From an uncultured Bacillota bacterium (GTDB taxonomy: Bacteria; Bacillota; Dethiobacteria; DTU022; UBA8154): a DNA stretch of 64,000 nucleotides. Of this stretch, positions 3,278 to 62,371 are shown piece after piece. Numbering within the stretch: the first letter of the stretch is position 1; each line of letters opens with the position of its first letter. A program made the position numbers and the translations under genes. Below the pieces are notes generated by a model. It searched no databases, was not told where the DNA came from, and saw only the letters and a program-made list of their open reading frames with translations. Where the stretch lies: the NCBI GenBank assembly GCA_937973635.1, contig CALJJZ010000035.1, forward strand, positions 10,812-74,811, given 5' to 3'.

Positions 3278-5685
3278 TCTTTCACTCCTTCCGCTGTGCC
3301 CGCAGCTGTGCCTGCCTGATCTGCCAGGCGCAAGCGGCGGACAAGGTACCAGTATAGCGCCAGCCATTTACCGTCCTGCTCGTTGCAAGCCGCAATCAGC
3401 TCCCGGGCAAACTGCCCGCCCCGCATCGCTTCATCCGGCCGGTCCCACAAGCTATTAAGAAGGGGCAGGCCTTCCCGGGATAGGCATTTGTTTAAAGCGT
3501 CCGCAGCTGTGCCGTCAATGCTAAACGCCCCCAGTTTGAGCGCATGGCCGGCGTGGTGCCGGGCGATGGCGGTAATAATGCAGGCAGCCAGCTCCGGTGC
3601 TCCCTCAAAAGTTTGATACAGGTAAAGGCAAACGGCATAAGCCCCCTCCACCGCATGGGGCGGCCGCCGGGGGACGTCCCTGTCAGTTAAAGGGTCAAAA
3701 TCCAGGTGAGAAAGGGGGACAGGAGGTGCCCGGCCCGGCGTCTTCGATTCCTGGTAAGCCCTGGCTATGGACTGCCAGTCCACACTCAGTTTACCCGCAT
3801 CATGTAAAATACACGCCAAGAGGCCGGCCTGTTCCAGCTGCTCTTTTGTCAGCCCGAGGTTCCGGGCCAGTAGCTGCAACGTGCGGGAGTATCCTTGATG
3901 CTGAAGGCGATACTGTTGCAAAACGCGCTCTACGTGCTCCCCCATTGTCTCCATACGATAACGGTAGCGCCCAAGGGTTCCCCTGTCGCGATAGCGCAGC
4001 GCCGACCCGCCTCCCGGCCTTCCCAGGACAAGGCCCAGTTCGGCCGAATAAAAGGCGTATGCAGGGTTTATGGCCAGCAACCAGGCGCCCGGAATTGCCA
4101 CAACGTTTAGCTCGCGCCAGGTGAATTTGAGGGCATAATCTTCCTCCAAACCTGGATCCACAGCAAAGGGCGCTTTAACGACCCATTCAGATGATGGCTG
4201 TGCGGAGGCTTTTTGCAGAAACGACCGCATGCTGGAAACGGGTACGGACAACGTTGCAGGCCAGCTGCCCGTATGTTGGAGCTGGACGGCTTCAGGCTTG
4301 TCCGTAACGACCACATTAACGTTGTTAATGTCGCGAATCAGTTCATCACGGACGCTCTCCAGCCAGCCGTCCATGGCCTGGTTTACTTTGGTACGGCGCT
4401 GATACAAATTTTCATATACTTTCAGAAATTTAACTTCGCGGGCACCGAGGACTTTGTTGACCGCTGCCTGCTCTTCTCGCCAACTCCATACTTTGCCCGA
4501 CAACCCCTGCAGCAATGCCGCCGTCTCCTCCATCTCCTCTTTACTGTAAGGCGGATACCCCGACGCAGGAAAGACCGTGACTGTCCCCTCCCCTCCGTAA
4601 CGGGCACAGCGCCCGGCCCGCTGGACCAGGCTGTTTATGGGCGCAAGCTCAGAGTAAAGGCGCTCTACGGAAAAATCCATGCCTGCTTCCACCACCTGGG
4701 TGCTCACCAGAATAAAATTATCCGGTTCCTGCCAGCTGCCTTTACCCAGCCGCCGCTGCAGCTCCTGCTCCGTCTTTCCCCGGTCTTCGGGATAAAAACG
4801 GGAATGCAGCAGGCGTATCTCCGTAGTTCCAGAGGAGAGGCGGCAAAGCTCTGTATAGATCTCCTGAGCGCGGGAAACGGTATTGGCGATGACCAGCGTG
4901 CGGGATTGGTGAGCTTGCAAAATGTCCGCAAGGAATGATGGGCCTCCATCGGCAAACACCCATTTTCTGGCGGTCGGCTCCCCCTTTTTGCTTTCAATTT
5001 GAGCAATTTCCTCTACATCCAGGTCTATTGTTGTTGTACGGGGCAGTTTTTTCTGCAACCACTCTATGGCGCTATCGGATAAAGTAGCGGTCATGATTAT
5101 AAAATTACAGTAGCCAGACAACCTATCCAGCATCTCTATGGCCGTGCCCATGGAGCGCTGCGGATCAAGGAGATGAAACTCGTCAAAAACTACTAGGCTC
5201 CCCAACAGGGCCCCCGCGTTGATATTGGCCAGACGAAGGGGTAGCGACACCGGGGCCAAAAGATATGCGGAAAGAAGCTGATCAATGGTGGTAAAGATAA
5301 TATCCCCCTGAAAGAACGGGTCTTCCTGCTGTTCGCCGGTTTGCACCGTGACAGCAATACTGTGAATATTTTTATTCCCGCTGCTGACTGCCCGGCAGGC
5401 GTCCCGTGTTATTCCATATAGCTGCCCAGCCAGGGAGCGGAGCGGCAGGGAGTAGAGCACCCGGTCAAAAAGGGGCTCTCCCTCCACCCGGCCCAGTATA
5501 TACGGCAGCAGGGCCGCCCATGTTTTGCCTGCGCCCGTCGGCGCACGCAGGATCAGGTTTGTACCCGCTAGGACAGCAGCAGCCACCCTCTGCTGGTAGG
5601 GGTAAATAGAAATGTCATCCTTTTGCATTAATAAGCGGAAAAGGCGGTTTAATTTATCGTATAAGTTAGCTCTGTTCTCTACCAT
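3274..5685 (-). CDS. cas3: Cas3 helicase-nuclease with the HD domain at the C-terminus
   Basis: 803 aa. Walker A APTGAGKT and a DEFH motif II (VVFDEFHLLD) are in the N-terminal helicase. The C-terminus carries HD motifs (LLACILHDAGKL, AIARHHAGH). C-terminal HD placement is reported for I-U/I-G and some I-A variants. Confidence 0.8.
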   Translation of the reverse strand: MVENRANLYDKLNRLFRLLMQKDDISIYPYQQRVAAAVLAGTNLILRAPTGAGKTWAALLPYILGRVEGEPLFDRVLYSLPLRSLAGQLYGITRDACRAVSSGNKNIHSIAVTVQTGEQQEDPFFQGDIIFTTIDQLLSAYLLAPVSLPLRLANINAGALLGSLVVFDEFHLLDPQRSMGTAIEMLDRLSGYCNFIIMTATLSDSAIEWLQKKLPRTTTIDLDVEEIAQIESKKGEPTARKWVFADGGPSFLADILQAHQSRTLVIANTVSRAQEIYTELCRLSSGTTEIRLLHSRFYPEDRGKTEQELQRRLGKGSWQEPDNFILVSTQVVEAGMDFSVERLYSELAPINSLVQRAGRCARYGGEGTVTVFPASGYPPYSKEEMEETAALLQGLSGKVWSWREEQAAVNKVLGAREVKFLKVYENLYQRRTKVNQAMDGWLESVRDELIRDINNVNVVVTDKPEAVQLQHTGSWPATLSVPVSSMRSFLQKASAQPSSEWVVKAPFAVDPGLEEDYALKFTWRELNVVAIPGAWLLAINPAYAFYSAELGLVLGRPGGGSALRYRDRGTLGRYRYRMETMGEHVERVLQQYRLQHQGYSRTLQLLARNLGLTKEQLEQAGLLACILHDAGKLSVDWQSIARAYQESKTPGRAPPVPLSHLDFDPLTDRDVPRRPPHAVEGAYAVCLYLYQTFEGAPELAACIITAIARHHAGHALKLGAFSIDGTAADALNKCLSREGLPLLNSLWDRPDEAMRGGQFARELIAACNEQDGKWLALYWYLVRRLRLADQAGTAAGTAEGVKE

Positions 5686-23827: not shown

Positions 23828-25669
23828 TTGTGCGGTTTTTGCTGTCTGCTGCCGGAGGAAGGCCCTGTAGATGCGACTTTGCTTACGAGGATGAGGGACC
23901 TGATGCTGCACCGGGGCCCCGATGAGGGGGTAAATTACCTGGCCCCCGGCTTTGGCCTGGGGTTCCGCCGCCTCAGCATTATTGATCTGAGCACCGGGAG
24001 CCAGCCGCTCCATAACGAGGACGGCAGCATCTGCCTGGCCTGCAACGGCGAAATCTACAATTTCACTGCCCTGCGCCAGGAGTTAAAAAGGCGGGGACAC
24101 CGCTTCAGTACGGGCAACGACGCCGAGGTCATTGTGCACCTCTACGAAGAAAAGGGCGTTGCCTGCCTAGCCATGCTGCGCGGTATGTTTGCCTTTGTCC
24201 TCTGGGACGAGAAGCAGCAGCTGCTCTTCGGCGCCCGGGATCGCTTTGGCATCAAGCCGTTCTATTACCTGGAGACAAAAGGTCTTTTCGCCTGCGCTTC
24301 CGAGAGCAAAGCCCTGGCCGTCCTACCCCAGTTCTGCCGCCAGGTAGACAAGGGGGCCTTTATGGACTACTTGAGCTTCCAGTACGTGCCGGAGCCCCGC
24401 ACCCTTTTCCAGGGCGTTTACCGCCTGCCCCCGGCCCACTACCTCCTGAAAAGGGCGGGCAAACCTCTGGAGCTTAACCGCTACTGGCGGGTGGAGTTTG
24501 CTCCTGCGCAAAAACCCCTGGATTATTTTGTGGAAGGGGTACGAGAAAAGATGCGGGAAGCGGTCAAGCTGCACCTGCAAAGCGACGTGCCCCGGGGCGC
24601 TTTCCTTTCCAGCGGCATCGATTCAGCAATTATTGTCGCCCTGGCGCGGGAAAGGGAAAAAATCTCCACTTTCAGCGTCGGTTACAAAGAAGCGGCCTAC
24701 AGCGAGCTCCCCCAGGCCAGGCGGACAGCAGCGTACCTGGAGACAGACCACCATGAATATGTGCTCAGCCCCGAGGAGTTCCTGGAGCAGCTGCCCCGCC
24801 TGGTCTGGCACCTCGACGAACCGGTGGCGGACCCGGCAGCCATCTCCCTTTTTTTTGTGGCGCGGCTGGCCCGGCAGAAGATCACCGTGGCCCTTTCGGG
24901 AGAAGGGGCCGACGAAGTTTTTGCGGGCTACGGCATCTACCGGGAGCCTTTTGCCTTGGCCCCTTTTAAACAACTGCCCCCGTCCCTTTTCCGTTCCCTG
25001 GAGCTGCTGGCCGGCTTCCTGCCCACCGGGATGCCGGGCAAAAATCTCCTTGCCCGGGCCAGACAGCCTCTGGAAAAGCGTTTTATCGGCAATGCCTTTA
25101 TTTTTCGGCCAGAGGGAAAAAGCAGGATTACGCCCGTGCAAGGGCACCCCTCCCCTTACCGTATAACCGAGCCACTGTACCTTCAGGTTGCCCCTTTAGA
25201 CGAGGTAACGCGCATGCAGTACATAGATCTCCATACCTGGATGCCCGGCGATATTCTGGTAAAGGCAGACCGGATGACCATGGCCAATTCCCTGGAACTG
25301 CGCGTCCCTTTCCTCGACCACCATCTCTTTGAGTTCGCCGCCACCCTCCCTCCGCATTATAAAATCAAGGGGAAAAGCACCAAAAAGATCCTGCGGGAGG
25401 CCTTTAAAGACCTCCTGCCCGAAGCGGCCATCAGCCGGCCGAAACGGGGCTTTCCCGTGCCCACCCGGGAATGGCTGAAGCGGCGGGATTTTCAAAACTT
25501 TTTCCGGCAACTGCTGCAGGAAGAAGGCAAGGACTGGTTCAAAGAAAAGGCGGTGCAGCAGCTTTACAGCGCCCACACCGCCGGGAAAAACGACCACAGC
25601 CGCCGGCTGTGGACAATACTTATTTTTCTGCTCTGGCATAGGATTTTTATTTCCGGGAAAGGAGACTAA
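23828..25669 (+). CDS. asnB: Asparagine synthase (glutamine-hydrolysing)
   Basis: GTG start giving MCGFC (Cys2 nucleophile) after an AGGGAGGAGG RBS. It has a GATase-2 domain and an Asn synthase domain with SGGIDS. Confidence 0.85.
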   Translation: MCGFCCLLPEEGPVDATLLTRMRDLMLHRGPDEGVNYLAPGFGLGFRRLSIIDLSTGSQPLHNEDGSICLACNGEIYNFTALRQELKRRGHRFSTGNDAEVIVHLYEEKGVACLAMLRGMFAFVLWDEKQQLLFGARDRFGIKPFYYLETKGLFACASESKALAVLPQFCRQVDKGAFMDYLSFQYVPEPRTLFQGVYRLPPAHYLLKRAGKPLELNRYWRVEFAPAQKPLDYFVEGVREKMREAVKLHLQSDVPRGAFLSSGIDSAIIVALAREREKISTFSVGYKEAAYSELPQARRTAAYLETDHHEYVLSPEEFLEQLPRLVWHLDEPVADPAAISLFFVARLARQKITVALSGEGADEVFAGYGIYREPFALAPFKQLPPSLFRSLELLAGFLPTGMPGKNLLARARQPLEKRFIGNAFIFRPEGKSRITPVQGHPSPYRITEPLYLQVAPLDEVTRMQYIDLHTWMPGDILVKADRMTMANSLELRVPFLDHHLFEFAATLPPHYKIKGKSTKKILREAFKDLLPEAAISRPKRGFPVPTREWLKRRDFQNFFRQLLQEEGKDWFKEKAVQQLYSAHTAGKNDHSRRLWTILIFLLWHRIFISGKGD

Positions 25670-27375
25670 AATGTTTCAGTCCGCACATAGACACCCCGGC
25701 CCCGCAGGCTGCGTATCTCCGTCATCGTCGGTGAACCGGCACGGAGATCCAGGGGATTGTCCCCGATGACCAGCCAGGCAAGGTCGGGCAAGACGGTAAG
25801 GGGCGTGATACTGTTGATCTTGTTGCTCCAGGCATTGAGCGTGGTCAGGTTCGACAGGCCGGCCAGAGGCGAGAGATCGCCGATCTGGTTCCCCCAGCAG
25901 AAGAGGGTCACAAGCTCTCTCATCCCGGCCAGGACGTGCAGGCTGCTGATCTGGTTATTGGCAAGGTTGAGGGTGCGCATGTTTCTCATGGCGGCAAGGG
26001 CGCTGAGATCGCTTATCTCATTGCCGGCCAGGGAGAGCCAGCGCAGCTCCGTAAGGCCGGTCAGAGGCGAAATATCGCTTAAGCGGTTGTTATTGAGGGA
26101 AAGCCAGTTCAGGCTTTGCAATTCCGCCAGGGGGGTGATGTCGCTTACCTGGTTATAGCTCAGTTCCAGGCGCTGCAGCGCCGTCAGGCGCGCCAGGGGC
26201 GAGATGTCCCGGATATGATTGTTGGCCAGGGAAAGGGTACGCAGGTTGGTACAATACTCGATGCCGCTTAAGTCTTCGATCACCAGGCCGCTGGCCGTCA
26301 GTTCCGTCAGTCTGGCCAGTTCGGAACGGTAAAGCGGCCCTGTGGGCTTGTTCAGTTTGCTGCGTATTACCGCCAGCAGCTCCGCATCCCGGAATTCCAC
26401 GGGCAGATCGCGGAAAACTTCTACAATGGCCGTGGCCCGGTAAGTATGGAATGTTGCCGTAATCGTGGCCGTGCCGGGGGCAAGGGCCGAAATACGCCCT
26501 TCACGGACAGTGGCCACACTGGCGTTGCTTGTGGTCCACGCAGCCCGGCCTGCGGGGATGGCCTGCTGCTCCTGCCCCGTATAACGGGCCAGCAGGGTCA
26601 GCTCACCGCTCTCCCCCATCTCCAGGCTGAGCGTAGCCGGGAAGAGGGCAATACTGCTGAGGGACTCGTCAACATTGACGGTCACGCCGCCGGAAGCGCC
26701 CCCGTAAGTGGCCGTAATGACCGCGCTCCCCGGGCCTACGCCCGTAACCACTCCCCTCTCCACCGTAGCCACAGCGCTGTTGGAAGAACGCCAGGCCACC
26801 CCGGGCCCTTCCACCCTTTCCTGACCGCCCTCGGCCAAGTGTGCGATCACGGCCACCTCTCCCGTTTGCCCACTGCGCAGGGATAAATGGGCCGGCGTAA
26901 GGGTCAGGGCCGTGACGCGCACGGGTCCCCTGATACTGACGGTACGGGCAACGGGATCCCAGGCCGTTTCCGCCCCAAAAGCCTGGCTCACAAAGCGCAG
27001 AGGCACAAAGGTGCGCCCGCTTACAAGACGCGCCGGGACATCCAGCTGCTCCGGCCTGCCGTTAAGCAGGGTCGTTCTTTTGTCTATCTCCAGGACTACA
27101 ACCGTTTCCCCCCGGCTAGCCGTAACCGTCCTGGTCTGTCCGTCCCAGGCCACTGCAGCCCCCAGGGCGCGGAAAATAGCCGCCATGGGCACAATGACCC
27201 GCCCACCTTCGATAAAGGGCTCGGCCCCGTCAAAGGAGAGCCTCTCCCCGTCCACGTAAACCCTGATCGTATCGCCCAGGGTAATATTAATCCCGCCGGT
27301 AGCCGCAGCAGCAGGGTTAAGGATAAAGCAGAAAAAGAATAACAACAGCACCGTTGTCTTTAAGCCCCGTTTCAT
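25666..27375 (-). CDS. Secreted surface protein: signal peptide, Cu-amine-oxidase-N-like domain, two Big_2 Ig-like domains, C-terminal leucine-rich repeats
   Basis: Start MKRGLKTTVLLLFFF at 27375 after a GAGGAGG RBS. There are about eight 22-aa LRRs (LxxLxLxxNxIxDISPL) near the C-terminus (DNA about 25750-26300). Confidence 0.6.
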   Translation of the reverse strand: MKRGLKTTVLLLFFFCFILNPAAAATGGINITLGDTIRVYVDGERLSFDGAEPFIEGGRVIVPMAAIFRALGAAVAWDGQTRTVTASRGETVVVLEIDKRTTLLNGRPEQLDVPARLVSGRTFVPLRFVSQAFGAETAWDPVARTVSIRGPVRVTALTLTPAHLSLRSGQTGEVAVIAHLAEGGQERVEGPGVAWRSSNSAVATVERGVVTGVGPGSAVITATYGGASGGVTVNVDESLSSIALFPATLSLEMGESGELTLLARYTGQEQQAIPAGRAAWTTSNASVATVREGRISALAPGTATITATFHTYRATAIVEVFRDLPVEFRDAELLAVIRSKLNKPTGPLYRSELARLTELTASGLVIEDLSGIEYCTNLRTLSLANNHIRDISPLARLTALQRLELSYNQVSDITPLAELQSLNWLSLNNNRLSDISPLTGLTELRWLSLAGNEISDLSALAAMRNMRTLNLANNQISSLHVLAGMRELVTLFCWGNQIGDLSPLAGLSNLTTLNAWSNKINSITPLTVLPDLAWLVIGDNPLDLRAGSPTMTEIRSLRGRGVYVRTETF

Positions 27376-27717
27376 CTCTGTAACCTCCTCGTTCCAGCCT
27401 TGACGCCTTTTTAAAATCTTTCTACAGCGAGGGCCAAAATCCTGCACCGGCCCCCCTTTTCCCCTTCGCTGATTTTAAGGGCACCGCCCCATCTTCGCCA
27501 AAAACATGTTATAATAAACTTCGCCCGGACGAACCGGGCCGGGTCATGCCTTTGTGTTTGGATATTGCCGTGTAAAGAAGGGATCGTGCTGGTCGCCTTT
27601 TATCCCCTTGGTAAAAACGAACAGGTAATGCTAACAGCAACCGTGCTGCCCTCCTTGCTGGGAAGCGCCACGCCCGGCACAGGCAGTGCAGGGGTTTCCC
27701 CCCGGCCGGAGGGAAAA

Positions 27718-28965
27718 ATGGAGCAGGTGATAAGCCTGCCGGAGCAAAACAGGCCCTTTAAAGCAGCATTTTTCCTGCAACAGGGGCGGGCTACAGCCAT
27801 AAGGCCGCTCCCGCCGGCAAGGAGCGGAGAAAAAAGCCGGGAAAATCTCCTGCCGGGACCAGGGTGGCGTTACCTCCCTTGCCCCGACGATCAGCTGCTG
27901 GTTCCGGCCTTTGTGGATTGCCACCTCCATCTTGCCCTGGACGGGATAGAGGGTTTCCGCAGTTTTACCGCCCCCCCGACGTCCTCTGCCCTTTTCGCCC
28001 GCCTGCGTGCCCTGGCTGCAGCCGGGGTGCTGGCGCTGCGTGACGGAGGCGACCTTTACGGCAGCGCCCTCACCGCCCGGCGGCTGCTGGCGGAAGCAGA
28101 CGCAGGGCCGGTGCAGCAGGCAGCTCTGCTGCCCCGCATCATCGCCACAGGTCCCGCCCTTTTCCGGCGCGGCCATTATGGCGCTAAGCTGGGAGGCAAA
28201 GGTCTTGACGGGCTGGCGGAGCTGGAAAAGGAGATCAGGGAGCGCAAGGAGGCGGGGGCAATGCAGTTAAAGGTGATCCTCTCCGGCCTGGTAAGCCTGC
28301 AGGAACCGGGAAAAGTCGGCTCCCTGCAGTTCAGCCTCTCCGAGCTGCAGGAGATTGTCCGGCTGGCCTCCTTTTATGGACTGCCCGTGATGGCCCACGC
28401 CAGCTCCGATGCCGCCGTGCGCCTGGCCGCCCTGGCAGGCGTGGGCAGTGTAGAACATGGTTATTTCGTCCGGGAAGAAACGCTGCAGCTGCTGGCGGAG
28501 AAGGGGGTGGCCTGGGTGCCCACCCTGGCCCCCCTGGCGGTCCTGGCCGGGATAACCGGCCCGGCGGAAGCAGAGGAGGGGCCAAAACCGGATAAACAAG
28601 GAACTCCTGCCCGGGAAGCTGCTCCTGCTCCTTTCCTGGCTACTCTCCTGGAGGAGCACCTCAGGATGATCGGCAGAGCCTCGGAACTGGGGGTGAAGAT
28701 AGCCGTAGGGACAGATAGCGGCGCACCGGGCGTGGGCTTTGGCCGCGGTTACTGGACAGAGCTGGCGCTGCTGGCCCGTGCCGGCTTTAGTCCCTCCGGG
28801 CTTTTAGAGCTCGCCGCTGTAAACGGAGCCGCAGTCCTGGGTCTGGAAGAAGAACGGGGGCTTATTGCCCCGGGTAAGCCTCCCTGCTGGCTCTGCCTGG
28901 ACAGGAGCTTCCTCGACGGCAAAATCGCCCCGCAGACGCTAAAGGGTATTATTGGCGTAACGTAG
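27718..28965 (+). CDS. Amidohydrolase-family metal-dependent hydrolase
   Basis: Probable start MEQVIS at 27718 (GGAGGG RBS). HxH metal motif in VDCHLHL; amidohydrolase fold. Confidence 0.6.
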   Translation: MEQVISLPEQNRPFKAAFFLQQGRATAIRPLPPARSGEKSRENLLPGPGWRYLPCPDDQLLVPAFVDCHLHLALDGIEGFRSFTAPPTSSALFARLRALAAAGVLALRDGGDLYGSALTARRLLAEADAGPVQQAALLPRIIATGPALFRRGHYGAKLGGKGLDGLAELEKEIRERKEAGAMQLKVILSGLVSLQEPGKVGSLQFSLSELQEIVRLASFYGLPVMAHASSDAAVRLAALAGVGSVEHGYFVREETLQLLAEKGVAWVPTLAPLAVLAGITGPAEAEEGPKPDKQGTPAREAAPAPFLATLLEEHLRMIGRASELGVKIAVGTDSGAPGVGFGRGYWTELALLARAGFSPSGLLELAAVNGAAVLGLEEERGLIAPGKPPCWLCLDRSFLDGKIAPQTLKGIIGVT

Positions 28966-30364
28966 GGAAGGGCGGCGCCGCGTCCGCATACTTTTCCTCC
29001 AGGGGAATACCCAGGAAGAGACGCCCCACCTGCCAGATATCGCCGGCGCCCATGGTAATCACCAGGTCGCCGGGGCGGGCAAAGTGCTCCAGGGCCGTCA
29101 GAAGCTGTTCTCTGCCGGCAAGGAAATGGGCGCCTCCGTGGCCCTGCCCCTGCAATAGGCGGACGAGCCTCTCTGAGGAGATGCCCGGCAGGGGGTCCTC
29201 CCCCGCAGCATAGATCTCGTCCAGAAGAAGGACCTCTGCATGGTGAAAAGCCCCGAGGAACTCCGACCAGAGAAAATGGGTACGGGTATAGCGATGGGGC
29301 TGAAAAACGCAGATAATGCGCCGGCCGCTCTGCCGCGCCGCTTCCAGCGTAGCCCTGATTTCCGTGGGATGGTGGGCGTAATCGTCTACCACCATGATGC
29401 CATTCCTTTCCCCCACCAGCTCAAAGCGGCGCTTTACCCCTCTAAAAGAACGGAGGGCTTCTTGCATCGCCCGGGGTTCAACCCCGCACACCGAAGCAGC
29501 TGCTATGGCCCCCAGGGCATTGAGCACATTATGCCGCCCCGGCACCTGCAGGCTAAATTCCCCCAGCTCCCGGCCGGCCCCGTAAACGCGAAAACGGGAA
29601 CCAAGGCCCTCCAGGGCCAAGTCGGCGGCACGGAAAGCGGCAGCGTCGTCAAAACCATATGTAACCACCACGGGGCACAGCAGAGGGCGCAAGCGCCGGA
29701 GCTCAGGGTCGTCGGCACAGATTACCGCCGTCCCCCCTTCTTTAACGCTGTTGATAAAATCCAGGTAAGCCGTCACCAGGCGGCAAAAATTGCCTTCGTA
29801 GTGTTCCAAGTGGTCGGCTTCGATATTGGTAACCAGGGCCAATTCAGGACGATAGCGCCTGAAGGAATGGTCGCTCTCACAGGCTTCGGCCACCACGTGC
29901 CGCCCTTGCCCCAGGCGTGCGTTGCCCCCGAAAAAAGAAACCTCACCGCCAATAATTGCCGTGGGATCCAGACCTCCCCCGGCCAGGAGCAGGGCAGTCA
30001 TGGCTGTCGTGGTGGTCTTGCCGTGGGCGCCGGCCACAGCCACCCCCTTTTTCTCATTAAAGACGGCGGCCAGCAGCTCGGAACGGTGCCAGAGGGGCAA
30101 ACCCCGCTCCTTTGCCGCCAGCAGCTCCGGATTATCGGCGGGAATGGCTGTGGAATAGACTACGAGCTGCGCCTCCCCCAGCTGCTCCGCCCGATGTCCC
30201 TGATAGATCCTGGCGCCGCTTTTTTGCAGCAAACGTGTAAGGCTGCAATCCCTGAGGTCCGAGCCGCTTACTTCATAGCCGCCCTGCAGGAGGATAAAAG
30301 CCAGGGCACTCATGCCATAGCCGCCAATCCCAATAAAATGGACTTTCTTCATAGCTGACAGCAT
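28949..30364 (-). CDS. murC: UDP-N-acetylmuramate--L-alanine ligase
   Basis: MLSAMKKVHFIGIGGYGMSALA N-terminus and Mur ligase domains. Start at 30364 with a GGAGT RBS. Confidence 0.85.
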   Translation of the reverse strand: MLSAMKKVHFIGIGGYGMSALAFILLQGGYEVSGSDLRDCSLTRLLQKSGARIYQGHRAEQLGEAQLVVYSTAIPADNPELLAAKERGLPLWHRSELLAAVFNEKKGVAVAGAHGKTTTTAMTALLLAGGGLDPTAIIGGEVSFFGGNARLGQGRHVVAEACESDHSFRRYRPELALVTNIEADHLEHYEGNFCRLVTAYLDFINSVKEGGTAVICADDPELRRLRPLLCPVVVTYGFDDAAAFRAADLALEGLGSRFRVYGAGRELGEFSLQVPGRHNVLNALGAIAAASVCGVEPRAMQEALRSFRGVKRRFELVGERNGIMVVDDYAHHPTEIRATLEAARQSGRRIICVFQPHRYTRTHFLWSEFLGAFHHAEVLLLDEIYAAGEDPLPGISSERLVRLLQGQGHGGAHFLAGREQLLTALEHFARPGDLVITMGAGDIWQVGRLFLGIPLEEKYADAAPPFPTLRQ

Positions 30365-30602
30365 CGTCAAAACTCCTTCTCTCCGTGCGTTACTTTGGAC
30401 CGGCTGCCCCGCTGTCAAATTTTCCCGCAGGCCAGACATTATACCATAATACCATATTCAACCCTCAAGGGGGAGGTGCGCAGCGGCAAAGAGCCTACCC
30501 ACAGGAAAAACCTGCCACCAAAAGTTTATGTCAACAAAATTTATGGTTCTAAGTTACCCCTATACAACATATATTTTAAAGTTAGACAAGTTTCCCACAG
30601 AG

Positions 30603-30676
30603 TAATCCACAGTATCCACAGAGTTATCCACAAGATAAAGGTAAGTAAGATCCTGCTTCCGGCAATAATATCCACA
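30603..30676 (+). promoter_or_regulatory. Cluster of four tandem, same-orientation DnaA-box-like 9-mers (TAATCCACA 30603, GTATCCACA 30612, TTATCCACA 30624, ATATCCACA 30668), plus weaker boxes at 30495 and 30591
   Basis: Seen directly. The consensus is TTATCCACA. The boxes sit in the 352-bp AT-rich intergenic region between tsaD (end 30717) and murC (start 30364). Confidence 0.5.
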
Positions 30677-30716
30677 AGGCCCGTTTCAGGTTACATAAAA
30701 CAGTAACCAGGTACCT

Positions 30717-31748
30717 TTATAACTGAAGACCCTCAAACCCCAGGGTAGAAACGGCATTAAGATCAGGGGTGGCAAGGCGTCCCCGGCGCAGGGCATAGTA
30801 TCCCGCCGCTCCGATCATGGCGCCATTGTCCGTGCACAGCCGGGGCGGAGGCGAGATTAGTTCAACCCCTGCTTCCGCCAGGCGGCGGCGCATACGGCTG
30901 CGCAGCTCGCCGTTAGCGGCCACACCGCCGGAAAGCAGCAGCTGCCGTACAGGATATTTTTGCAGCGCCAGAAATGCTTTCTCCACCAGCACCTCCACCA
31001 CCGCCTCCTGGAAAGCGGCAGCCAGATCCTCCAGCTGCAGGGAGGCACCTTTTTCCTTTTCCCTGCGGATAAAGTTCAACACTGCCGTTTTGAGCCCGCT
31101 GAAACTAAAATCCAGTTTGCCCTCCTCGCCCATGAGGGCCCGGGGAAAGGTGATCAGGGACGGATCTCCCTGCTGGGCTAGTTTTTCTAGAATCGGCCCC
31201 CCGGGAAAACCGAGGGAAAGGGCCCGGGCCACTTTGTCAAAGACCTCGCCGGCCGCATCGTCCCGCGTGCGGCCAAGGACCGTAATCTCCCCGTGATCCT
31301 GCATGTAAAGCAAAGAAGTATGCCCCCCTGAAACGATGAGGCAGAGCACGGGGAAAACAATAACGGCCCCTGTCAGAAAATTGGCATAGATATGCCCTTC
31401 CAGGTGGTTTACGGCAACCAGAGGCAGATCCAGGGCATAGGCGAGGGCTTTGGCCGTGGCAATACCTACCAGCAAAGAACCTACCAAGCCCGGCCCCTGT
31501 GTTACGGCTATGCCCTCCAGGTCGCCAAAGGTTACGCCTGCCTTGGCCAGGGCTTCGTCAATGACCGGGTTGATCATCTCCAAGTGACGGCGCGAAGCAA
31601 TTTCGGGGACAATGCCGCCAAAGCGCCGGTGCAGGTCGTCCTGGGAAGAGATGATATTGCTCAGCAGCTGGCGCCCGTTGAGCACCACCGCTGCCGCCGT
31701 ATCGTCACAGCTGCTTTCCAGCCCGAGAATCAAAGTGCGTTGGGGCAT
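30717..31748 (-). CDS. tsaD: tRNA N6-adenosine threonylcarbamoyltransferase
   Basis: Kae1/Gcp family, 343 aa, with the His pair in NHLEGHIY. Confidence 0.85.
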   Translation of the reverse strand: MPQRTLILGLESSCDDTAAAVVLNGRQLLSNIISSQDDLHRRFGGIVPEIASRRHLEMINPVIDEALAKAGVTFGDLEGIAVTQGPGLVGSLLVGIATAKALAYALDLPLVAVNHLEGHIYANFLTGAVIVFPVLCLIVSGGHTSLLYMQDHGEITVLGRTRDDAAGEVFDKVARALSLGFPGGPILEKLAQQGDPSLITFPRALMGEEGKLDFSFSGLKTAVLNFIRREKEKGASLQLEDLAAAFQEAVVEVLVEKAFLALQKYPVRQLLLSGGVAANGELRSRMRRRLAEAGVELISPPPRLCTDNGAMIGAAGYYALRRGRLATPDLNAVSTLGFEGLQL

Positions 31749-50640: not shown

Positions 50641-51729
50641 CTAGCCGCGCACATAACTTACGATGGCCCCGCCGATATCATCCAGGGGCAAGATCTTATC
50701 CACAGCCCCCGCCGCGATGGCCTGCTTAGGCATGCCAAAAACAACAGAGCTCTGCTCGTCCTGGGCGATGGTCAGGGCGCCTGCGTCATGCATGGCTTTT
50801 AATCCCCGGGCGCCGTCGTCCCCCATACCCGTAAGGATAATGCCCAGGCTATTGCCGGAAGCATTTTGGGCTACAGAGAAAAAGGTCTTATCCACAGAGG
50901 GGCGGTGCCGGTTTACAGGCGGGCCGTTATCCAGGCGCACGATAAAACCGCTTGCTCCCTTGGACAGGAGCATATGTTTGCCTCCTGGCGCGACCAGAAC
51001 GCTGCCGTTGACGAGAGGGTCGCCGTCTTGAGCCTCCTTGACCCGCAGGCGGCAGAAATTGTTCAGGCTGGCCGCGTAGGAGGCGGTAAAACCGGCAGGC
51101 ATATGCAGCACCACAAGGATGCCCGGCAGGTTGGCCGGCAGCTTAGAGAGTATATTTTTCACCGCCACGGTGCCGCCGGTGGAAGCGCCGATGGCGATGA
51201 CCTTATCTGTGCTCTGCACCAGCCCCCTTCCCGGCTCGCGGGCCGCCAGGTCAGGGATAAGCTCTGCCGGTGCCATCAAGCGGTCGATGCGTTCCTGCCT
51301 GACCTGGCGGCGCAGGACCTCCATGTTTGCCGCAGCAGCATTTCTAATCTTGCCGATTATCTCTGGCGCCAGCTCTTCCAGGGCGCTCCCCAGACCCAGA
51401 GTAGGTTTAGAAATGTAATCCACGGCACCGAGTTCCAAGGCACGGAGTGTAGCTTCGCTCCCCTCCCGGGCCAGGGAGCTGATAACCACCACGGGCAGGG
51501 GATAGGAGGCCATCAACTTTTCCAGAAAAGTAAGGCCGTCCATCCGGGGCATCTCCAGGTCGAGGGTAATCACGTCAGGGCGCTCCTCTTTGATCTTTTT
51601 GATGGCGTACAGGGGATCGTTTGCCGTGCCCAGCACCTCCATACCCCGTTCCCTGGAGATAATGCGGGCTAGCAGTTCCCGTACCAGCGCTGAGTCGTCC
51701 ACAATGAGTACTTTAATCGGCTTAGGCAT
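50641..51729 (-). CDS. cheB: Chemotaxis response regulator protein-glutamate methylesterase
   Basis: REC domain (LIVDDS...DVITLDLEMPRMDG) and the methylesterase catalytic Ser region GASTGG. Confidence 0.9.
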   Translation of the reverse strand: MPKPIKVLIVDDSALVRELLARIISRERGMEVLGTANDPLYAIKKIKEERPDVITLDLEMPRMDGLTFLEKLMASYPLPVVVISSLAREGSEATLRALELGAVDYISKPTLGLGSALEELAPEIIGKIRNAAAANMEVLRRQVRQERIDRLMAPAELIPDLAAREPGRGLVQSTDKVIAIGASTGGTVAVKNILSKLPANLPGILVVLHMPAGFTASYAASLNNFCRLRVKEAQDGDPLVNGSVLVAPGGKHMLLSKGASGFIVRLDNGPPVNRHRPSVDKTFFSVAQNASGNSLGIILTGMGDDGARGLKAMHDAGALTIAQDEQSSVVFGMPKQAIAAGAVDKILPLDDIGGAIVSYVRG

Positions 51730-61726: not shown

Positions 61727-62371
61727 TCAGGGTTCCAGCAGGCCGATCAACCTGGCAAACTGGCGGATATCTCCTTCCTGGCGCAGTTCCAGCTTTTCCA
61801 TGATGTTGCTCTTATGCCTGTCCACCGTTTTGGGGCTGATACAAAGCCTTCTGCCGATCTCCGAGCGGCTGCAGTTCCTGGCCCACAGGTTAAAGACTTC
61901 CTTTTCCCGGGAAGTCAGCTTGCTGTAACTGGCCATGGCGCCGCTACTTGGGCCTGCTTGCAAATAACCGGCCAGCACGGGCTGGAGCACCGCAGAGCTC
62001 AAATAGGGCCTGTCCTTTTTAACCGCCTCCAGGGCCAGCATAAGTTCATCATAGACCGCGTCTTTATGCACATATCCCATGGCGCCGGACTTTAAAGCCT
62101 GGTCCACATAGATACTATCCGCATAGCCAGAGAGGATCACCACCCTGGCAGAGGGGATATATTCCTTTATCTGTCTGGTCGCCTCCAGGCCGCTCACCCC
62201 CGGCAGGGAGATATCCATAATCACCACGTCAGGGGCCACTTTTGCGCTGAGGGCCACGGCCTCAAGGCCGTCGCCCGCCTCCCCCACCACCTCGATGGAC
62301 CCTTCTTTCTCCAGCAGTGCTCTTAGCCCCTGGCGGAAAAGGGCATGGTCATCAACCAGGAGAACACGCAT
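61727..62371 (-). CDS. NarL/FixJ-family response regulator (REC plus LuxR-type HTH)
   Basis: REC domain (LLVDDH...VVIMDISLPGVSG) and LuxR HTH (LTSREKEVFNLWARNCSRSEIGRRLCISPKTVDRHKSNIMEKL). Confidence 0.85.
   Translation of the reverse strand: MRVLLVDDHALFRQGLRALLEKEGSIEVVGEAGDGLEAVALSAKVAPDVVIMDISLPGVSGLEATRQIKEYIPSARVVILSGYADSIYVDQALKSGAMGYVHKDAVYDELMLALEAVKKDRPYLSSAVLQPVLAGYLQAGPSSGAMASYSKLTSREKEVFNLWARNCSRSEIGRRLCISPKTVDRHKSNIMEKLELRQEGDIRQFARLIGLLEP

Follow-up and report, generated by a model that had tools for sequence, protein, structure and literature searches.

A predicted DnaA-box cluster downstream of tsaD in an uncultured Bacillota bacterium, and its probable kinship with the Bacillus subtilis gcp-ydiF cluster

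A cluster of DnaA boxes after gcp (= tsaD) in Bacillus subtilis was described in 2007 (Ishikawa et al. 2007). It is located about 55 degrees from oriC, between convergent 3' ends, a setting that Ishikawa et al. called 'uncharacteristic for transcriptional regulation'. This DnaA-box cluster (DBC), DBC[gcp-ydiF], has 10 sites and a Kd of 0.15 uM for ATP-DnaA (Smith & Grossman 2015, PMC4447404). At low DnaA concentration, 16-fold more gcp-ydiF DNA was recovered with ATP-DnaA than with ADP-DnaA (PMC4447404). Deletion of all six non-origin DBCs led to early initiation, with ori/ter x1.37 (Okumura et al. 2012, PMC3245932). When DBC[gcp-ydiF] was deleted alone, no measurable effect was seen (ori/ter 0.99), and its re-insertion near oriC in the six-cluster deletion gave no rescue, 1.35 vs 1.37 (PMC3245932). 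A 2026 review regards the six clusters as probable DnaA sinks, in an organism without IHF, Hda or datA/DARS loci. B. subtilis DnaA regulates genes beside other DBCs, namely sda, ywlC, yydA and dnaA (Ishikawa et al. 2007). In this species, the promoter of tsaC (ywlC) carries a DnaA cluster, and another one lies upstream of mnmE (thdF/trmE).

Here, we analyzed a DnaA-box cluster in a stretch of 64,000 nucleotides (the window) from an uncultured Bacillota bacterium. The initial annotation of this DNA had reported four 9-mers within 74 bp between tsaD and murC, and its coordinates, this span and both gene names proved correct. Its proposal of a DnaA-box cluster outside the dnaA-dnaN context was backed by box statistics, by conservation and by the B. 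subtilis gcp cluster. Overall, we explain the element, with good but not full confidence, as a non-origin DBC after tsaE-tsaB-rimI-tsaD that matches DBC[gcp-ydiF] and is probably orthologous to it. The element class has been known after gcp/tsaD in Bacillus since 2007, functionally unexplained, and the window holds a distant example. Modestly new here are the conservation of a tsaD-linked module well beyond the Bacillaceae and its inversion between flanking inverted repeats.

The window element and DBC[gcp-ydiF] share dense boxes directly after tsaD, the last gene of tsaE-tsaB-rimI-tsaD, a position outside oriC, and conservation among relatives. The Paenibacillus version, beside a ydiF-like gene, has the abutting-pair-plus-third-box core that is common to the Clostridia-type loci. 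The two elements differ in several respects. In the window, the downstream gene is a co-directional murC and not a convergent ABC-F gene, five boxes are present, compared with 8-10 in reports on B. subtilis, an inverted repeat borders the module on both sides, and DnaA binding is predicted from sequence. The host belongs to an uncultured Firmicute lineage of roughly 56% GC, far from the Bacillaceae. Every defining feature of the tsaD/gcp-downstream DBC family that can be tested in silico was found in the window element: at least four boxes with at most one mismatch in ~100 bp, an intergenic position directly after tsaD, conserved boxes, and a location outside oriC.

Escherichia coli datA is likewise a non-origin DnaA-box cluster, thought to lower initiation potential. 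Its function depends on particular boxes and on an IHF-binding site between DnaA boxes, and it stimulates the hydrolysis of DnaA-ATP. The window element has no sequence or positional homology to datA, and the likeness is a functional analogy only. With the DnaA-regulated promoters (dnaA, sda, ywlC/tsaC, yydA) it shares a box cluster in a spacer upstream of a gene, and ywlC is also a t6A-pathway gene. However, a distance of about 150 bp or more separates the window boxes from the likely murC -10, and their linkage is to the 3' end of the upstream gene, not to a particular promoter.

Box array in the tsaD-murC spacer

The spacer between tsaD and murC is 352 bp long, and both flanking genes are on the - strand. 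The tsaD gene (= gcp; 30717-31748; TIGR03723, E 1.8e-130; also TIGR00329 'gcp_kae1') is the last one of a tsaE-tsaB-rimI-tsaD operon on the - strand. The murC gene (28949-30364; TIGR01082, E 6e-151; 471-aa gene call) starts at 30364 and has the RBS GAAGGAG, which is conserved among the lineage relatives. Two genes past murC lies the gene for a 593-aa protein that combines internalin-like leucine-rich repeats with a domain of the copper-amine-oxidase N-terminal type (25666-27447, - strand).

Five boxes, all on the + strand, make up the array. The perfect box B1 (TTATCCACA, 30624-30632, 0 mismatches) is the probable high-affinity anchor. B2 (GTATCCACA, 30612-30620, 1 mismatch) lies 12 bp start-to-start from B1, B3 (TAATCCACA, 30603-30611, 1 mismatch) abuts B2 with a 9-bp step, and the weak box B4 (TTTCCCACA, 30591-30599, 2 mismatches) lies 12 bp from B3. 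The distal box B0 (ATATCCACA, 30668-30676, 1 mismatch) is 44 bp from B1. The module layout is B0, 35 nt, B1-CTC-B2-B3-CTC-B4. The array runs head-to-tail, with start-to-start steps of 12, 9 and 12 bp that average 11 bp, roughly one turn of the helix. Four of the boxes have at most one mismatch and fall within 74 bp (30603-30676). A sixth candidate on the same strand, the box-like 9-mer CTACCCACA (30495-30503, 2 mismatches), lies in an unalignable, non-conserved stretch of the spacer and probably does not belong to the element. The initial annotation had mentioned two weaker boxes. The one at 30591 is conserved and belongs to the array, whereas the one at 30495 is not conserved in the lineage alignment.

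The AT-rich tract (30520-30600, no strand) is located between the array and the murC promoter region, and it holds the short islands ATTATATGC and (T/C)TTAGAAC. Its GC content is 28%, compared with 44% for the whole spacer and 56% for the 64-kb window. The tract had been described before as lying in a 60% GC genome, a slightly high value.

Throughout the window, 22 boxes with at most one mismatch were observed vs 7.4 expected, and in the whole 64 kb only the tsaD-murC spacer packs at least four of them into 80 bp. When the window was dinucleotide-shuffled, four boxes in 80 bp never came up (0/1000) and three came up once (1/1000), although such whole-window shuffles understate the background of coding DNA. 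Shuffles of the AT-rich spacer alone, a local test free of that weakness, did not reach four boxes either (0/20000). By both measures the motif density is far above chance, and not at the random expectation that the initial annotation had named as refuting its case. TCCACA itself occurs 41 times in the window, vs 20 expected, with 31 copies on the + strand. The excess of TCCACA and of box-like 9-mers across the window is probably a codon and strand-composition (skew) effect of the - strand genes, and not a sign of DnaA sites.

Conservation and inversion within the lineage

The exact TsaD protein was found in metagenome assemblies only, and its closest named relatives are MAGs. A TsaD search of genome contigs gave relatives with at most 56% identity among the matches listed. 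Closer ones were obtained by a homologous-protein search and from the contigs encoding these proteins. Seven relatives, with TsaD 68-85% identical, keep the order tsaE-tsaB-rimI-tsaD, spacer, murC. The spacer was aligned for six members (the window, L083-L086 and L089; TsaD 65-85% identical), leaving out the inverted L087 and L088. Most of it is unalignable across the six members, and B0-B4 with their 12/9/12 spacing stand out. The initial annotation had made its case depend on conservation of the intergenic region in relatives, and such conservation was found: the box columns were 92% identical to the window, vs 47% for the remaining 307 spacer columns (Mann-Whitney p = 5e-15).

In the relatives, B1 reads TGTGGATAA, TGTGAATAA or TGTGGAAAA (tsaD sense). 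B2 is conserved in L083-L086 and L089, B4 is identical in L083-L086 (TGTGGGAAA), and B0 is kept as TGTGGATAT, TGTGGATAG or TGTGGTTAA in L083-L086 and L089. The gap between B0 and B1 is 33-35 nt among relatives, and longer in L089. Across the boxes, TCCACA never changes, and the first three positions are more variable.

This variation pattern is that of DnaA boxes, and it bears on the question whether the 9-mers could be sites of another DNA-binding protein, or a chance or compositional artefact. The window-wide over-representation and strand bias of TCCACA and box-like 9-mers, together with the understated background in the dinucleotide shuffles, would speak for such an origin. We nevertheless hold it to be highly improbable. 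The cluster is intergenic, it was never reached in the local shuffles, and the homologous Bacillus site is bound by DnaA in vivo and in vitro. We predict, with high confidence, a genuine DnaA-binding cluster under selection.

Other spacer islands are conserved as well, namely a hairpin after the tsaD stop, ATTATATGC, TTTAGAAC, TT(G/T)ACATAA, an extended -10 (TGGTATAAT), and the murC RBS. The AT-rich tract is not conserved as a block. Within it, the island ATTATATGC, kept in L083-L086, lies between the boxes and the murC promoter region, nearer to the boxes. The (T/C)TTAGAAC island (30546-30553 in the window) is located 15-16 nt upstream of the TT(G/T)ACATAA arm and is also kept in L083-L086. 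Neither of these two islands matched a promoter or a regulator site. The hairpin, GGTTAC-N8-GTAACC (30689-30708, - strand RNA sense), begins 8 nt past the tsaD stop and has no U-tract. It is kept in close relatives and overlaps one arm of the inverted repeat. We considered the inverted-repeat arms, TT(G/T)ACATAA and TTTAGAAC as promoter elements for sigma-A or a sporulation sigma factor, and dropped this idea since no consistent -10/-35 partner was found across relatives.

The module is bracketed by the inverted repeat TTATGTAA ... TTACATAA, whose arms stand 139-156 nt apart in seven relatives. The tsaD-proximal arm (30691-30698, + strand) reads TTACATAA on the + strand and TTATGTAA in tsaD sense, and it is the arm that forms part of the hairpin. 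The murC-proximal arm (30526-30534, + strand) reads TTATGTCAA on the + strand and TTGACATAA in murC sense, and is imperfect, with one extra C. In most relatives the arms are 8-14 nt long. L083 has one 17-nt imperfect pair, and the repeat is imperfect in the window too. A TTACATAA-type motif is present in 8/8 lineage members.

In L087 and L088, the module is inverted between the arms, with unchanged flanks and breakpoints at the arms. L087 keeps all five boxes, while the distances from B0 to the arm (12-15 nt) and from B4 to the arm (56-57 nt) swap sides. The four array boxes are kept, inverted, in L088, and B0 is degenerate (3 mismatches, read by eye). The inversions show that the boxes, whichever way they face, are the selected feature. 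They speak against a small ORF, an RNA, or an operator that depends strictly on its orientation. L087 and L088 do not form a clean clade in a tree of the single protein TsaD, so the inversion may have arisen more than once in the lineage.

A coding function was rejected on related grounds. The + strand ORF in the spacer (30395-30706, 103 aa) was not called by gene finders, the B0-B1 spacer varies among relatives (35/35/34/33/33 nt), and the module is inverted in two taxa. An Rfam scan of 30200-30900 (E up to 1) matched no RNA family, and a riboswitch or sRNA reading of the spacer was dropped for this reason. Simple promoter and terminator scans of the spacer gave nothing convincing.

The flanking repeat could in principle serve a programmed, phase-variable switch, in which TTATGTAA and TTACATAA would act as recombination sites that flip the DnaA-box cassette. 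Such a switch would fit a conserved inverted repeat of 8-14 nt around the module, the occurrence of both orientations among related species with breakpoints at the arms, and a single-protein tree that does not cleanly group the two inverted taxa. Still, we consider it very unlikely. For the L087 species, the spacer was byte-identical in eight independent assemblies, 8/8 in one orientation, and there was thus no sign of phase variation among them. The two other assemblies of the window's DNA (L081, L082) agree with the window. Moreover, no recombinase gene is adjacent in the window and the lineage loci examined, and the arms are short for a recombinase site.

The core motif in distant Firmicutes

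Directly after tsaD, on the tsaD sense strand, the core TGTGGATAA-TGTGnATAA-GTy-TGTTrATAA was found in four distant Firmicutes. These were Desulforamulus putei (L090), a Pelotomaculum-labelled MAG (L091), Desulfofundulus kuznetsovii (L092) and a Syntrophomonadaceae MAG (L008). A further box is located 5-7 bp upstream of the core in L090-L092, and in L008 the core begins 8 nt past the tsaD stop. The genes downstream differ among these loci (AMP-ligase, radical SAM, lgt). The stretch B2-B3-CTC-B4 in the window matches the distant core position for position, with the abutting pair B2-B3 corresponding to TGTGGATAA-TGTGnATAA and B4 to the weak third box TGTTrATAA.

In Paenibacillus solani, a convergent ABC-F (ydiF-like) gene has the core at its 3' end, and a leuA-like gene is inserted after tsaD. 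This layout is the gcp-ydiF arrangement of B. subtilis. By way of Paenibacillus and the literature, we argue that the window element and the Bacillus tsaD-downstream DBC are likely the same element.

In an unbiased scan of metagenomes, the core was allowed four free positions and matched at least 120 times, and 80 of these matches were examined. In 27/80 loci tsaD was immediately upstream, always on the same strand and at 20-412 bp, which made it the commonest context. The other loci belonged to a small number of further recurring contexts. The free positions of the scan were themselves conserved (consensus cTGTGGATAATGTGgATAAGTCTGTkrATAAc). Judging by these matches, the triple box is a general module of predicted high affinity, and its commonest home in the 80-locus sample is the tsaD 3' end. 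No such cluster follows tsaD in the loci sampled from Lachnospiraceae, Desulfosporosinus, Megasphaera and Christensenellaceae or in any of the non-Firmicutes sampled, and so it is not universally required.

In metagenomic Firmicutes, the triple-box motif TGTGGATAATGTGnATAAGTCTGTnnATAA also recurs at other conserved sites, one between a class-II aminoacyl-tRNA synthetase gene (glycyl-type by eye) and polC, and another beside hpf, which encodes a ribosome hibernation factor (L104, L112, L134, L138, L141, L160, L168; L106, L137, L140, L142, L169, L172). Heptamers were noticed in L091 (4066-4072) and L092 (about 4019-4025), with similar ones near some non-tsaD motif matches. They are short and may be due to chance. 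A promoter-like match in the triple box of L008 (TGGATA-17-GATAAT) was dropped, as it fails for the TGTTAATAAC variants and for the window.

The same spacing after tsaD in distant anaerobic Firmicutes, the tolerance to inversion and the recurrence of the core at a few other loci together argue that a DnaA nucleoprotein complex at the tsaD 3' end is under real selection. The range of hypotheses is thereby narrowed to a function that would be orientation-independent and tsaD-linked, and neither an origin nor a classic promoter operator.

Origin, murC control and DnaA titration

The basal unwinding system of oriC requires at least three DnaA-trios within 16 bp 3' of a box in TTATCCACA orientation and, after them, an AT-rich DUE. 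The window array resembles it in its tandem head-to-tail boxes, of which the upstream one fits the consensus best, and in the AT-rich DNA nearby. Tandem boxes of one orientation that adjoin a 28% GC tract could suggest a secondary origin or a DUE, that is, an origin-like or cryptic unwinding element. However, the 16 bp that follow the TTATCCACA-oriented boxes on their 3' side contain no run of at least three DnaA-trios. Next to B1, this flank (AGATAAAGGTAAGTAAGATCCTGC) is free of NTN runs over 16 bp, and its sole run (ATC CTG CTT) begins only after 17 nt and is a poor match to the trio consensus. The AT-rich tract is found 5' of the boxes, whereas DnaA-trios and a DUE would belong 3' of them. 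An unwinding step is excluded by these rules.

The GC skew is negative along the whole 64-kb window, with no sign change, and the - strand carries most of the long ORFs. This places the window inside a single replichore, with oriC beyond its right end. Neither dnaA nor dnaN is adjacent to the array. In addition, distant relatives such as L008 have no comparable tract, and the tract lacks conservation as a block in the lineage. Taken together, an origin-like element is extremely improbable. For the AT-rich tract, ordinary spacer or promoter DNA is the probable explanation.

DnaA-dependent control of the downstream gene, here murC, deserves more weight. DnaA could act on the murC promoter or block read-through from the tsaD operon. 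The array is upstream of murC on the same strand, no intrinsic terminator was found between tsaD and the co-directional downstream gene (window, L083, L008, L091), so that read-through is plausible, and every Clostridia-type locus examined has a co-directional gene downstream. As described above, B. subtilis DnaA regulates genes beside other DBCs. Either mode would tie the synthesis of cell-wall precursors to the replication initiator.

Several observations speak against it. The best sigma-A candidate for murC, a probable extended -10 (TGGTATAAT in murC sense, 30438-30446, - strand), was read by eye and was not reported by the simple promoter scan. It is located about 75 nt upstream of the murC ATG, and the GAATATGGTATAATG island at this position is conserved in relatives. 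The nearest box, B4, is about 150 bp upstream of it, too far for simple occlusion. The module is kept in either orientation in the lineage (L087, L088), and the Bacillus cluster lies between convergent 3' ends. At least five different genes follow the cluster (murC, lgt, a 5-formyl-THF cyclo-ligase-like gene, AMP-ligase, radical SAM), and murC does so in the window's lineage only. Since the element travels with the tsaD 3' end while the downstream genes of distant relatives differ, the DnaA-controlled murC promoter proposed by the initial annotation is the less likely alternative. We regard control of the downstream gene as rather unlikely as a whole, with a roadblock or regulatory effect on read-through into a co-directional gene as a fair rival to the non-origin DBC.

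For the non-origin DBC, the following assembly can be envisaged. ATP-DnaA would nucleate on the perfect box B1 and, through AAA+ contacts, spread from there in a cooperative head-to-tail manner over B2 and B3 to the weak B4. The 12/9/12-bp steps, with their mean of 11 bp, would place about one protomer per helical turn, and B0, four helical turns off, would add a fifth protomer. The outcome would be a stable DnaA nucleoprotein complex with no unwinding thereafter. By analogy with B. subtilis, the most likely physiological role would be that of one of several distributed chromosomal DnaA sinks that restrain initiation. We put forward titration or initiation control as the main function only tentatively. 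For DBC[gcp-ydiF] itself, titration is weakly supported, because the single deletion left ori/ter unchanged and re-insertion near oriC did not rescue. The datA-like titration site suggested by the initial annotation stands only as a functional analogy. The probably orthologous B. subtilis cluster, taken alone, neither shifted ori/ter upon deletion nor rescued the six-cluster deletion.

A more far-reaching explanation appears unlikely to us. The tsaD-3' module would be ancient, pre-dating the split between Bacilli and Clostridia-type Firmicutes, with the fixed grammar cTGTGGATAA-TGTGnATAA-GTC-TGTkrATAA. Its job would not be passive titration. Instead, it would serve as the missing datA counterpart in Firmicutes, a site that alters the nucleotide state or availability of DnaA, or as a DnaA-dependent link between initiation and t6A tRNA modification. 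In the window's lineage it would also be a flippable cassette bounded by the inverted repeat.

The cluster is a modest lead for research on replication control, and not a new kind of system. For annotation, it represents a predictable non-origin DnaA site, which should not be mistaken for oriC by origin finders.

Two further groups of boxes were noted in the window. Two perfect TTATCCACA boxes (50696-50704 and 50888-50896, + strand) are located 192 bp apart, inside a - strand ORF (50641-51729). They were dismissed as a comparable cluster, being in coding sequence and not dense. At 62064-62219 (+ strand), four box-like 9-mers, one with 1 mismatch and three with 2 mismatches, form a loose group that is much weaker than the tsaD cluster.
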